This document shows positions 48,001 to 54,000 of a stretch of 64,000 nt of DNA, piece after piece. Positions within the stretch are counted from its first letter, which is position 1. Every line of letters begins with the position of its first letter. Made by a program: the position numbers. The stretch is from Escherichia coli (lineage in GTDB: Bacteria > Pseudomonadota > Gammaproteobacteria > Enterobacterales > Enterobacteriaceae), in the NCBI RefSeq assembly GCF_003334335.1, contig NZ_QOWQ01000028.1; one strand, written 5' to 3'.

Positions 48001-51000
48001 ACAATCAGTATAAAGGTCCTGTTCGGTATTTATCTTCTATTAATGGCAGGCAAAGTTTTTGCCTTCAGTTGTAATGTCGATGGCGGGTCAAGTATTGGAG
48101 CAGGTACAACCTCTGTTTATGTTAATCTCGACCCTGTAATACAGCCGGGCCAGAATCTGGTTGTAGACTTGTCTCAGCATATAAGTTGCTGGAATGATTA
48201 CGGCGGCTGGTACGACACTGATCATATAAACCTGGTACAAGGCTCAGCTTTCGCAGGCTCCCTACAGTCATATAAAGGATCGCTGTACTGGAATAATGTG
48301 ACCTACCCCTTCCCGTTGACGACAAATACCAACGTATTGGATATTGGTGATAAGACACCGATGCCATTACCGTTAAAACTCTATATTACCCCAGTTGGGG
48401 CGGCCGGTGGAGTTGTCATAAAAGCGGGGGAAGTCATTGCCCGTATTCATATGTATAAAATTGCAACATTAGGAAGCGGAAATCCGCGTAATTTTACGTG
48501 GAATATTATTTCAAATAACAATGTTGTTATGCCAACAGGCGGCTGCACCGTTGATAGTCGTAATGTCACCGTGGATCTCCCGGACTTTCCTGGAAGCGCA
48601 GAAATACCCCTTGGCGTATATTGCTCAAGCGAACAAAAGCTCTCATTTTATCTTTCGGGTGCCACCACTGACAGTAGCCGACAAGTGTTTGCTAACACAG
48701 CACCTGATGCAACAAAAGCATCGGGAGTGGGTGTCACTCTAATGCGTAATGGAAAAATACTGGCTACGGGAGAAAATGTCTCCCTGGGGACAGTAAATAA
48801 AAGCAAAGTACCTCTGGGTTTAAGCGCAACCTATGGACAAACAGGAAACAAGGTTTCAGCCGGAACCGTCCAGTCAGTCATTGGTGTCACTTTTATCTAT
48901 GAATAATTGTGATTTTGACCTTAGTCTATGCGCTCCATTCACGAAAATTGCGCGGATAATTATTTTGTGAAGGCTATTAGCCTACACCTGTAAGAAAATC
49001 CGCGCACAATTGAAGCCAGAGTCTTATTTTTTATATTGAAAAATATGTTAATTTAAACACTATGAGAGATGATGCTTAACTTATCGTATTTAATCTATTG
49101 TTTAACGATAATAGATTAAAAATAGAAAGAGAGTAGTCCCCTACTCTTATATATCCATGTTGGCGATAATCCCTTTGTATGTACTGTGCATCATCGCTAT
49201 TACAAATCCTAATAATTCATTTCCACACAGGATAAGTAGATGAAGAAAAAAATTGAATCCTACCAGGGTGCTGCAGGTGGTTGGGGTGCTGTTAAATCCG
49301 TAGCGAATGCAGTACGTAAGCAGATGGATATACGCCAGGATGTTATTGCCATGTTTGACATGAATAAGCCAGAGGGCTTTGACTGTCCGGGTTGTGCATG
49401 GCCAGATCCTAAGCACAGTGCGTCATTCGACATTTGTGAAAACGGCGCAAAAGCAATCGCCTGGGAAGTCACGGATAAGCAGGTAAACGCCTCTTTCTTT
49501 GCTGAGAATACGGTTCAATCATTACTTACCTGGGGAGACCACGAGCTTGAGGCTGCGGGGCGACTCACTCAGCCTTTGAAATATGATGCCGTCAGCGACT
49601 GTTACAAGCCATTAAGCTGGCAACAAGCTTTCGACGAAATTGGCGCACGCCTTCAAAGCTATAGTGATCCCAATCAGGTTGAATTCTATACTTCGGGCCG
49701 CACTTCCAATGAAGCTGCCTTTCTTTATCAGCTTTTTGCCCGTGAATACGGGAGCAATAACTTTCCCGACTGCTCCAACATGTGCCATGAACCGACAAGC
49801 GTGGGTTTGGCAGCGAGTATCGGTGTAGGTAAAGGGACCGTGTTGCTGGAAGACTTTGAGAAGTGCGATTTAGTCATTTGCATTGGGCATAACCCTGGTA
49901 CAAACCACCCTCGCATGCTGACTTCGTTGCGCGCTTTAGTGAAACGGGGAGCGAAAATGATCGCCATCAATCCTCTACAGGAACGTGGCCTGGAGCGATT
50001 TACCGCACCGCAAAACCCGTTTGAAATGCTGACGAACTCTGAGACTCAGTTGGCCAGTGCCTACTATAACGTGCGCATTGGTGGCGATATGGCGTTGCTC
50101 AAGGGGATGATGCGCCTGTTAATTGAGCGCGATGATGCTGCAAGCGCCGCAGGTCGGCCTTCATTGCTTGATGACGAGTTTATTCAAACGCATACCGTCG
50201 GCTTTGACGAGCTACGCCGTGACGTTCTCAATTCCGAGTGGAAAGATATCGAACGTATTTCTGGACTAAGTCAGACACAAATCGCCGAACTGGCTGACGC
50301 ATATGCCGCTGCCGAACGCACCATTATCTGTTACGGAATGGGGATCACTCAGCACGAACATGGTACCCAGAACGTACAGCAACTGGTCAATCTGCTGTTG
50401 ATGAAAGGTAACATTGGCAAGCCTGGTGCGGGTATCTGCCCACTACGTGGACACTCTAATGTACAGGGCGACCGAACCGTCGGTATCACCGAGAAACCGT
50501 CTGCAGAGTTTCTGGCTCGTCTGGGTGAGCGCTATGGCTTCACCCCACCTCATGCACCTGGACATGCTGCAATTGCCAGCATGCAAGCAATATGTACGGG
50601 GCAGGCTCGAGCATTGATCTGCATGGGGGGCAATTTTGCGCTGGCAATGCCAGATCGGGAAGCGAGCGCTGTACCGTTAACGCAATTAGATTTGGCGGTA
50701 CACGTAGCCACTAAGCTTAACCGCTCTCATCTGTTGACCGCACGGCATAGCTATATTCTGCCGGTCCTGGGACGTAGCGAGATTGACATGCAAAAAAACG
50801 GTGCGCAGGCGGTAACCGTTGAGGATTCAATGTCGATGATTCATGCCTCGCGTGGCGTGTTAAAACCCGCCGGTGTAATGCTGAAATCAGAGTGTGCAGT
50901 GGTCGCGGGAATCGCGCAGGCAGCACTACCCCAGAGCGTGGTAGCCTGGGAGTATCTGGTGGAAGATTATGATCGCATTCGCAATGACATTGAAGCTGTG

Positions 51001-54000
51001 CTGCCAGAGTTCGCCGACTATAACCAGCGCATCCGTCATCCCGGTGGTTTTCACCTGATAAATGCAGCTGCTGAAAGGCGCTGGATGACGCCGTCAGGTA
51101 AGGCTAATTTCATTACCAGCAAAGGGCTGTTAGAAGATCCCTCTTCAGCGTTTAACAGTAAGCTGGTCATGGCGACAGTACGCAGCCACGATCAGTACAA
51201 CACGACGATTTATGGTATGGATGATCGCTATCGAGGGGTATTCGGTCAACGAGATGTGGTCTTTATGAGTGCTAAACAAGCTAAAATTTGCCGTGTAAAA
51301 AACGGCGAAAGAGTTAATCTTATTGCGCTTACGCCAGACGGTAAGCGCAGCTCACGCCGCATGGATAGATTAAAAGTGGTCATTTACCCTATGGCTGACC
51401 GCTCACTGGTGACCTATTTTCCAGAATCGAATCACATGCTAACACTTGATAACCACGATCCATTAAGTGGCATTCCTGGCTATAAAAGTATTCCGGTTGA
51501 ATTAGAACCATCAAATTAATGCCTCTTCTCATTTCTTCTGCTGTCATCCGCACAGCAGAAGAATTCCTCATTGACTATTATTTCGCAATTTGCTCACATG
51601 GATTAAATTAAACTACATACTATAAGATATAAACTTCTGCCTACAGCTGTAAGAAACTCCGCTCAGTACTGAAGCACCAGTCCTATTTCCTCTTTTCTCC
51701 AGCCTGTTATATTAAGCATACTGATTAACGATTTTTAACGTTATCCGCTAAATAAACATATTTGAAATGCATGCGACCACAGTGAAAAACAAAATCACGC
51801 AAAGAGACAACTATAAAGAAATCATGTCTGCAATTGTGGTTGTCTTATTACTGACACTTACGTTGATAGCCATTTTTTCGGCAATTGATCAGCTGAGTAT
51901 TTCAGAAATGGGTCGCATTGCAAGAGATCTTACACATTTCATTATCAATAGTTTGCAAGGCTGAAAACAAACAGCAAATTATAAATATGAAATGTTAAAA
52001 AAGTATCGATAAAAACTTTATTGTTTTAAGGAGATAAAATGTCGCTCGTTTGTTCTGTTATATTTATTCATCATGCCTTCAACGCTAACATTTTAGATAA
52101 AGATTACGCCTTCTCTGACGGCGAGATCCTGATGGTAGATAACGCTGTTCGTACGCATTTTGAACCTTATGAGCGGCATTTTAAAGAGATCGGATTTACT
52201 GAAAATACCATTAAAAAATATCTACAATGCACTAACATCCAGACAGTGACGGTGCCTGTTCCTGCGAAGTTTTTACGTGCTTCAAATGTACCGACTGGAT
52301 TGCTTAATGAAATGATTGCTTATCTCAACTCGGAAGAACGCAATCATCATAATTTTTCAGAACTTTTGCTTTTTTCTTGCCTGTCTATTTTTGCCGCATG
52401 CAAAGGTTTCATTACACTATTAACTAACGGTGTGCTATCCGTTTCTGGGAAAGTGAGAAATATTGTCAACATGAAGCTGGCGCACCCATGGAAGCTGAAA
52501 GATATTTGTGACTGCCTGTACATCAGTGAAAGCCTGTTGAAGAAAAAACTTAAGCAAGAGCAAACGACATTCTCACAGATTCTTTTAGATGCAAGAATGC
52601 AGCACGCAAAAAATTTGATACGCGTAGAAGGTTCAGTCAATAAAATTGCCGAACAATGTGGTTATGCCAGTACATCTTATTTTATTTATGCGTTCCGCAA
52701 ACATTTCGGCAACAGTCCGAAGAGAGTTTCTAAGGAGTACCGTTGTCAAAGTCACACGGGTATGAATACGGGCAACACGATGAATGCTTTAGCTATTTGA
52801 TTATTTGCTAACGAGTAGTCAACCACACACGCTGCGTAAGAATTAAATGGGGCAGCCATTCCCTGCCCCGCGTTGTTTTTAGGCGATATATTTATTGAAA
52901 TAAATAAGTGACATCCATCACATATTTATGCACTTGCATAACCTGTTGCATGATTATTTATGATCTCAATTCTGCATTTTGTCAGTAAAATGCAATAATT
53001 TATTAAATATCAATAAATTAGTTGTTTATCGGCGAGAAATTACTTAATAGAACAGAAAGTAATGTCAACGCTTTATGGACTGTTTTTTCCCTTTTTTTAG
53101 CTAAATCTGCTATCTCTTTATGTGACTAACTTCACTTACATCCACTTATTTCTCTTCGTAAAATTACTTTGGAATTAAGTACAATAAGAAGAGGAACATT
53201 TATGAAGTCTGCATTAAAGAAAAGTGTCGTAAGTACCTCGATATCTTTGATACTGGCATCTGGTATGGCTGCATTTGCTGCTCATGCGGCAGATGATGTA
53301 AAGCTGAAAGCAACCAAAACAAACGTTGCTTTCTCAGACTTTACGCCGACAGAATACAGTACCAAAGGAAAGCCAAATATTATCGTACTGACCATGGATG
53401 ATCTTGGTTATGGACAACTTCCTTTTGATAAGGGATCTTTTGACCCAAAAACAATGGAAAATCGTGAAGTTGTCGATACCTACAAAATAGGGATAGATAA
53501 AGCCATTGAAGCTGCACAAAAATCAACGCCGACGCTCCTTTCATTAATGGATGAAGGCGTACGTTTTACTAACGGCTATGTGGCACACGGTGTTTCCGGC
53601 CCCTCCCGCGCCGCAATAATGACCGGTCGAGCTCCCGCCCGCTTTGGTGTCTATTCCAATACCGATGCTCAGGATGGTATTCCGCTAACAGAAACTTTCT
53701 TGCCTGAATTATTCCAGAATCATGGTTATTACACTGCAGCAGTAGGTAAATGGCACTTGTCAAAAATCAGTAATGTGCCGGTACCGGAAGATAAACAAAC
53801 GCGTGACTATCATGACAACTTCACCACATTTTCTGCGGAAGAATGGCAACCTCAAAACCGTGGCTTTGATTACTTTATGGGATTCCACGCTGCAGGAACG
53901 GCATATTACAACTCCCCTTCACTGTTCAAAAATCGTGAACGTGTCCCCGCAAAAGGTTATATCAGCGATCAGTTAACCGATGAGGCAATTGGCGTTGTTG

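Follow-up and report, generated by a model that had tools for sequence, protein, structure and literature searches.

The ydeP-safA-ydeO acid-resistance locus of Escherichia coli carries two near-identical 18-base-pair (bp) inverted repeats, and our analysis indicates that these are, very likely, the EvgA operators of that locus. The repeats lie in the 64,000 nucleotides (nt) of contig NZ_QOWQ01000028.1 (assembly GCF_003334335.1) that we analyzed and refer to below as the window. A first-pass annotation had picked them out as two 18-mers with 16 bases in common and had read them as binding sites of EvgA. Both 18-mers are indeed present on the plus strand: a putative EvgA box in the ydeP promoter at 48979-48996 (AGCCTACACCTGTAAGAA, which divides into AGCCTACA-CC-TGTAAGAA) and a second in the safA-ydeO promoter at 51638-51655 (TGCCTACAGCTGTAAGAA, or TGCCTACA-GC-TGTAAGAA). 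They are identical at 16 of 18 positions, the mismatches falling at position 1 (A/T) and position 9 (C/G), and each is an 18-bp inverted repeat that matches the EvgA-box pattern. The interpretation of these repeats as EvgA sites is supported by independent boxes elsewhere in the regulon, by conservation, by a fixed spacing to the -10 element, and by the literature on EvgA control. The boxes and the EvgA regulation of both genes are already known, and what we add are modest refinements: a promoter cassette of about 100 bp, a regulon-wide spacing of 53-54 nt, and a conserved extended -10 element.

Control of ydeP and safA-ydeO by EvgA, together with the 18-bp box, belongs to the textbook AR2 acid-resistance cascade, in which EvgAS acts on YdeO and YdeO on GadE, and SafA acts on PhoQP. 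The box is said to occur upstream of emrKY/evgAS, yfdX, frc (yfdW), yegR, ydeP, and safA (b1500)-ydeO, reportedly from work by Masuda and Church of 2002/2003 and by Itou et al. of 2009. The first-pass annotation had called ydeP and safA known EvgA targets, and published work bears this out (PMC8174306, PMC11210196, PMC4283999, bioRxiv 10.64898/2026.05.06.723403). Specifically, direct regulation by EvgA is stated for ydeP and emrKY (PMC8174306, citing Kato 2000 and Itou 2009), EvgA activates ydeP and ydeO (PMC11210196), and the safA-ydeO operon has an EvgS/EvgA-regulated promoter that is also repressed by PhoP (bioRxiv 10.64898/2026.05.06.723403). More generally, an EvgA binding site is present in all genes known as direct EvgA targets (PMC4283999), and inverted repeats at yfdX and yfdWUVE serve as its binding sites (PMC3720670, citing Masuda & Church 2003). 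Both boxes in the window, then, lie upstream of genes reported to be activated by EvgA. A full-text literature search for the consensus or half-site strings together with EvgA returned nothing relevant.

We compared the two boxes with the EvgA consensus and with the rest of the window. The consensus that the first-pass annotation had given, TTCYTACANNTGTARGAA (TTCYTACA-N2-TGTARGAA), is accurate, as the same repeat occurs in K-12 at emrK-evgA, frc, yfdX (twice), and yegR. A consensus pattern search of K-12 DNA located the box TTCTTACGCCTGTAGGAT in the emrK-evgA intergenic region, a perfect consensus match (TTCTTACAACTGTAAGAA) 252 bp upstream of frc, two boxes upstream of yfdX, and one box 107 bp upstream of yegR. 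All boxes in the K-12 loci searched are intergenic and upstream of genes reported to be EvgA-activated, with one exception inside mdtE; this two-mismatch match, the sole one in the gadE-mdtEF region, was treated as a chance occurrence. Measured against the consensus, the ydeP box has two mismatches, its promoter-proximal half being perfect, and the safA box has one. The stricter pattern CCTACANNTGTAAGAA, with 14 specified bases (CCTACA-NN-TGTAAGAA), has just two matches in the 64 kb, and no further match appears at up to two mismatches, where shuffles lead one to expect 0.30. When up to three mismatches to the consensus are allowed, the only match in the window besides the two boxes begins at 52580, inside ydeO, and a total of three consensus matches was reached in none of 100 shuffles.

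We also scanned the whole window with an EvgA position weight matrix (PWM), a check that the first-pass annotation had proposed and whose outcome supports its reading. The matrix was symmetrised and trained on five boxes outside the window (emrK/evgA, frc, yfdX twice, and yegR; all K-12 DNA). The safA box ranked first with 20.9 bits and the ydeP box second with 18.2 bits, both within the 18.2-25.2 bits that the training boxes span, and a gap of about 7 bits separates them from the third-ranked site at 11.05 bits. The maxima of 200 shuffled windows averaged 13.5 bits (standard deviation, 1.9). The weak third match in ydeO, at 52580-52597 (TTCTTTTAGATGCAAGAA, three mismatches, 11 bits), lies within the coding sequence and below the mean shuffle maximum, and we take it for a probable chance match.

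The first-pass annotation had described the boxes as lying about equally far ahead of ydeP and safA. This does not hold for the start codons, since the gap from box to ATG is 243 nt for ydeP versus 111 nt for safA, but it does hold for the core promoters, where an extended -10 element begins 53 nt after both boxes. For ydeP this element is TGtTAATTT at 49046-49054 (+), with its hexamer at 49049-49054, and for safA it is TGtTATATT at 51705-51713 (+), with its hexamer at 51708-51713; in each case, it is the hexamer that starts 53 nt past the box. The two extended -10 elements (TGnTAnnnT) align on the common diagonal of the two promoters. No -35-like hexamer was found 16-18 bp upstream of the ydeP and safA -10 elements. 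Across six promoters, namely those of ydeP, safA, emrK, frc, yfdX(b), and yegR, where yfdX(b) denotes the promoter-proximal of the two yfdX boxes, a -10-like TAnnnT begins 53-54 nt past the box. The boxes in the window therefore hold the position relative to the core promoter that they hold at other EvgA-dependent promoters, and this fixed distance across six promoters points to a rigid geometry.

The spacing also agrees with what can be said about the start of transcription. The ydeP 5' leader in the work of Gorelik et al. spans -178 to +10, counted from the ATG (PMC11210196), and position -178 from the ydeP start codon at 49240 corresponds to window position 49062, an A that lies 7 nt past the conserved hexamer. 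From the end of this leader, and in agreement with the position of the -10 element, 49062 (+) is the probable transcription start of ydeP. If so, the ydeP box spans -83 to -66, with its center at -74.5. By extrapolation from the alignment with ydeP alone, we infer an equivalent safA start at about 51720-51721. A literature search for a mapped transcription start found none.

Our alignment of the two intergenic regions covered six lineages, five of E. coli and one divergent Escherichia lineage (L004). No substitution touches the half-sites CCTAC(A) and TGTAAGAA in any of the six, except for a single A-to-G change at position 8 of the L004 ydeP box, and the same base occurs in the natural emrK box. 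All remaining substitutions in the boxes fall at positions 1, 2, 9, and 10, the outer, weakly specified and the central, unspecified bases; in the safA box, 16 of 18 columns are invariant and changes occur at positions 1 and 10 only. Thus, the consensus positions are constrained and the unspecified positions vary. In most of the non-K-12 lineages sampled, the distal half of the ydeP box is ATCCTACA, which is nearer the consensus than the AGCCTACA of K-12.

The comparison of K-12 with L004 provides a scale for this conservation. Between these two, 16 of 18 bases are kept in each box, and the segment from box to transcription start is 85% identical for ydeP and 77% identical for safA, compared to 60.5% at the fourfold-degenerate sites of ydeP and 47-53% in the 60 nt upstream of the boxes. 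The ydeP extended -10, TGnTAATTT, is kept in six of six lineages, as is that of safA. Because identity in the boxes and core promoters exceeds that of both the fourfold-degenerate sites and the upstream flanks, we conclude that these elements are under purifying selection, and this conservation, together with the fixed spacing to the -10 element, fits functional operators.

These results bear directly on whether the boxes could be nothing more than chance palindromes in AT-rich intergenic DNA, devoid of function. Short palindromes are common, and a similarly high PWM score arose in 1 of the 200 shuffles. However, the boxes are the two top PWM sites of the window, each stands 53 nt before a conserved extended -10 element and ahead of genes of the same regulon, their consensus positions are under purifying selection, and no shuffle in 100 yielded three consensus matches. 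We consider a chance origin hardly credible, and conservation and spacing effectively refute it.

Alternatively, the boxes could be operators of a different regulator, whether another NarL/FixJ-family protein such as RcsB, GadE, or NarL, or one of the modulators YdeO and PhoP. The TAAGAA within the half-site resembles part of RcsB-type boxes. It is also true that other proteins act at this locus, with PhoP and YdeO reported to repress PsafA (bioRxiv 10.64898/2026.05.06.723403) and YdeO indirectly repressing ydeP (PMC11210196). Nonetheless, the 18-bp motif is also found at emrK/evgA, frc, yfdX, and yegR, promoters whose reported common denominator is EvgA, and EvgA is, according to EcoCyc, the only regulator common to ydeP and emrKY (PMC8174306). 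A position near -74, moreover, suits an activator rather than a repressor. Finally, it is well established that neither PhoP nor YdeO belongs to the NarL type or recognises a palindrome of the 7-2-7 kind. Operators of another regulator are, on balance, very unlikely.

Several points weigh against assigning the boxes to EvgA and should be considered alongside the evidence above. One of 200 mononucleotide shuffles scored 22 bits with the PWM, and the score of a single site, taken alone, is not overwhelming. The K-12 distal half of the ydeP box, AGCCTACA, departs from the consensus at positions 1-2. For binding of EvgA to precisely these positions, the support comes from secondary citations and from the consensus, and the ydeP transcription start was deduced from the length of another paper's probe. 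In addition, the only hit of a generic sigma-70 scan is another -35/-10 pair at ydeP, TTGAAG-16-TATATT at 49010-49037. We rejected this pair as the EvgA-dependent core, as its -10 is lost in L004, it has no safA counterpart, and its position disagrees with the -178 leader; because it lacks a safA counterpart and is not conserved in L004, we do not take it for the regulated promoter. With these points taken into account, we still regard EvgA operators as the very likely identity of the two boxes.

If the boxes do act as EvgA operators, the locus would be switched on as follows. Mildly acidic pH would lead the sensor kinase EvgS to phosphorylate EvgA, a response regulator of the NarL/FixJ type, and an EvgA dimer would then bind each 18-bp inverted repeat, which offers two 8-bp half-sites (TTCYTACA) separated by a 2-bp gap. 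The box would sit at a fixed place, its center about 74 bp before the transcription start and approximately three helical turns upstream of the class II activator position. With its extended -10 (TGnTAnnnT) but lacking a usable -35, the promoter would be expected to be silent without its activator. Bound EvgA may recruit or stabilise sigma-70 RNA polymerase, probably via the alpha C-terminal domain, a contact that we infer. The first box would in this way turn on ydeP, and the second would turn on safA-ydeO.

The likeness between the two promoters is not confined to the box. A ydeP copy comprising box, spacer, extended -10, and leader start (48980-49080, +) is collinear with a safA copy at 51639-51739 (+), and the two are identical, without gaps, at 68 of 101 positions (diagonal offset, 2659). 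The similarity sets in sharply at the box, and there is none upstream of it. Even in the 85 nt past the box, 52 positions are identical (z = 7.4), compared to a mean of 22.8 (standard deviation, 3.9) and a maximum of 40 in 100,000 shuffles, and to a maximum of 42 identical positions among about 200,000 random AT-rich pairs of segments taken from the window. Other pairs of EvgA promoters, compared in the same register, are identical at only 18-35 of 85 positions, which argues that shared functional constraint is not the main cause of the likeness between the ydeP and safA promoters. When K-12 and L004 are compared, the orthologous promoters are identical at 93 and 84 of 105 positions and the paralogous promoters at 62-69 of 105. 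As the orthologues are more alike than the paralogues, a duplication would have to be old and to have proceeded without gene conversion.

On the simplest reading, the ydeP and safA promoters look like copies of one cassette of about 100 bp that arose by duplication. We advance more tentatively the broader proposal that a single EvgA-dependent cassette (about -83 to +19) was duplicated within Escherichia and that this, along with the rigid 53-54 nt geometry of the regulon, has never been explicitly described; we hold this to be possible but doubtful. If it is true, the duplication would have brought either the lineage-specific safA-ydeO operon or ydeP under EvgA control.

An old duplication raises the further potential that the boxes resemble each other only by common descent of the duplicated segment of about 100 bp, and that one or neither of them is a working operator. 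The likeness does reach well past the box, with 68 of 101 positions identical in ungapped alignment and a z-score of 7.4 for the segment after it, and common ancestry alone could produce a 16/18 match. Yet the duplication is old, as judged from the orthologous (93 and 84) and paralogous (62-69) identities out of 105, and both boxes have nevertheless kept 16 of 18 bases while neutral sites have fallen to about 60% identity and upstream flanks to about 50%. In addition, ydeP and safA are both reported to be induced by EvgA. We therefore consider it very improbable that descent without function accounts for the boxes.

As a discovery, the EvgA boxes themselves carry little weight. What the sequence-only view offers is a compact architecture, with the box near -74, an extended -10 without a -35, and a duplicated cassette, and this architecture could guide promoter engineering or the annotation of the EvgA regulon in other Escherichia lineages.

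The genomic setting of the boxes is an E. coli chromosome of the K-12 type. The 4.2 kb around them are 100% identical to many E. coli chromosomes, K-12 derivatives included, and gene identities were taken from the RefSeq annotation of this identical E. coli DNA. The window runs in the opposite orientation to MG1655, and a position p in it converts to the MG1655 coordinate 1,635,726 - p; the ydeP box thus maps to 1,586,730-1,586,747, the safA box to 1,584,071-1,584,088, and the probable ydeP transcription start to 1,586,664. All annotated genes around the boxes lie on the plus strand. ydeQ occupies 47992-48906, and ydeP, which encodes a putative oxidoreductase of acid resistance, lies downstream of the first box at 49240-51519. 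Downstream of the second box, safA (51767-51964) is followed by ydeO (52039-52800), the second gene of the safA-ydeO operon (51767-52800).

Between the two transcription units, at 51533-51563 (+), is a hairpin with a 12-bp stem (TTCTTCTGCTGT-CATCCGC-ACAGCAGAAGAA; -17.6 kcal/mol, z = -4.95). It begins 14 nt past the ydeP stop codon and has no clean T-run behind it, and in L004 its stem is kept and its loop is entirely replaced. This hairpin is probably the ydeP terminator, which would separate ydeP from the safA promoter.

Several E. coli strains have insertion sequences (IS4, IS903B, IS1A, ISKpn26, and ISApl1) in the region that corresponds to 48700-52900. Two such strains were checked; IS4 interrupts ydeQ and IS1A interrupts ydeO, and the promoters are untouched in both. 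Elsewhere in the window, and unrelated to this locus, Rfam models matched at gathering score to the Hfq-binding RNA STnc560 at 12780-12993 (+; 281 bits) and to IS009 at 1187-1385 (+; 221 bits).

The promoters and leaders contain further elements. A short shared string (AGTCYTAT, AGTCTTAT, AGTCCTAT, AGTCCTCT, or AATCCTAT) stands 24-31 nt past the box in ydeP, safA, emrK, and yegR. In the window it occupies 49020-49027 and 51679-51686, at approximately -42 to -35; the emrK and yegR copies are those of loci L002/L058. At the equivalent place, frc and yfdX carry CTCTCTGATT instead. We considered this string as an EvgA half-site and rejected it, given that its score of 1-2.4 bits is too weak.

The 178-nt ydeP leader contains two hairpins, at 49089-49120 and 49129-49148. 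The first is a near-perfect 14-bp inverted repeat (TTAATCTATTGTT-TAAC-GATAATAGATTAA) that shows a compensatory change from A..T to C..G in strain MS7163 (L054) and, in other lineages, an improvement from G.U to A-U. Lying at about +28 to +59, this repeat might form an RNA structure or serve as a palindromic site for a protein. Rfam gave no match in the two promoter/leader regions.

We also examined how far the association of ydeP with an EvgA box extends among its orthologues. The Escherichia loci found in the orthologue scan were all of the E. coli type. YdeP shares about 85% amino-acid identity with Edwardsiella proteins (loci L005-L008 and L047, with L007 from Yersinia rohdei), and the ydeP orthologues of Yersinia rohdei, Raoultella, and Tatumella are more distant than those of Edwardsiella. 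A search of 2.5 kb around the ydeP orthologues of all four, Edwardsiella, Yersinia rohdei, Raoultella, and Tatumella, turned up no EvgA box. This fits a published statement by which EvgS/EvgA is all but limited to E. coli (PMC8174306), our only source for the absence of evgAS from these genomes. The pattern suggests that ydeP is patchily distributed or horizontally transferred and that its control by EvgA was gained in Escherichia. A metagenome-assembled genome labeled 'Candidatus Nanosynbacter' (JARKOR010000108.1; L003) also carries a ydeP locus, with a protein 100% identical to the YdeP of the window and with both boxes; this locus is almost certainly E. coli contamination of that assembly.

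Finally, the boxes can be set against known operator systems. Like the 7-2-7 sites of NarL, they consist of two inverted half-sites separated by a 2-bp gap, an arrangement well established as the target of dimeric helix-turn-helix effector domains. Unlike the boxes, NarL sites are built from the heptamer TACYYMT, serve a different regulator, and occur in many positions and arrangements, whereas EvgA boxes occur at a fixed position.

Of the characterised homologues of EvgA, BvgA is the closest, and its sites in Bordetella virulence promoters are inverted heptads of the TTTCCTA type. The boxes share with BvgA sites the core TTCYTA, the placement of an inverted-repeat primary site well upstream of -35, and an activator-dependent promoter; homology of the two proteins is reported (PMC8174306, PMC9496106). 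The two systems differ in that BvgA, at fha-type promoters, spreads cooperatively from its primary site over weaker ones as far as -35. A half-site PWM applied to the six promoters revealed no convincing secondary EvgA half-sites between box and -10, the best scores being 3 bits or less compared to about 10 bits for true half-sites, with the second full yfdX box as the exception.

The closest counterpart is the EvgA regulon box itself, with which the two repeats share their sequence, their 8-2-8 inverted-repeat geometry, their placement before EvgA-activated genes, and the distance of 53-54 nt to a -10-like hexamer. They are just the sites to be expected at ydeP and safA. Nothing essential differs between them, the distal half AGCCTACA of the K-12 ydeP box being the weaker one. 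What sets ydeP and safA apart within the regulon is their collinear likeness over about 100 bp, which exceeds the 18-bp box.

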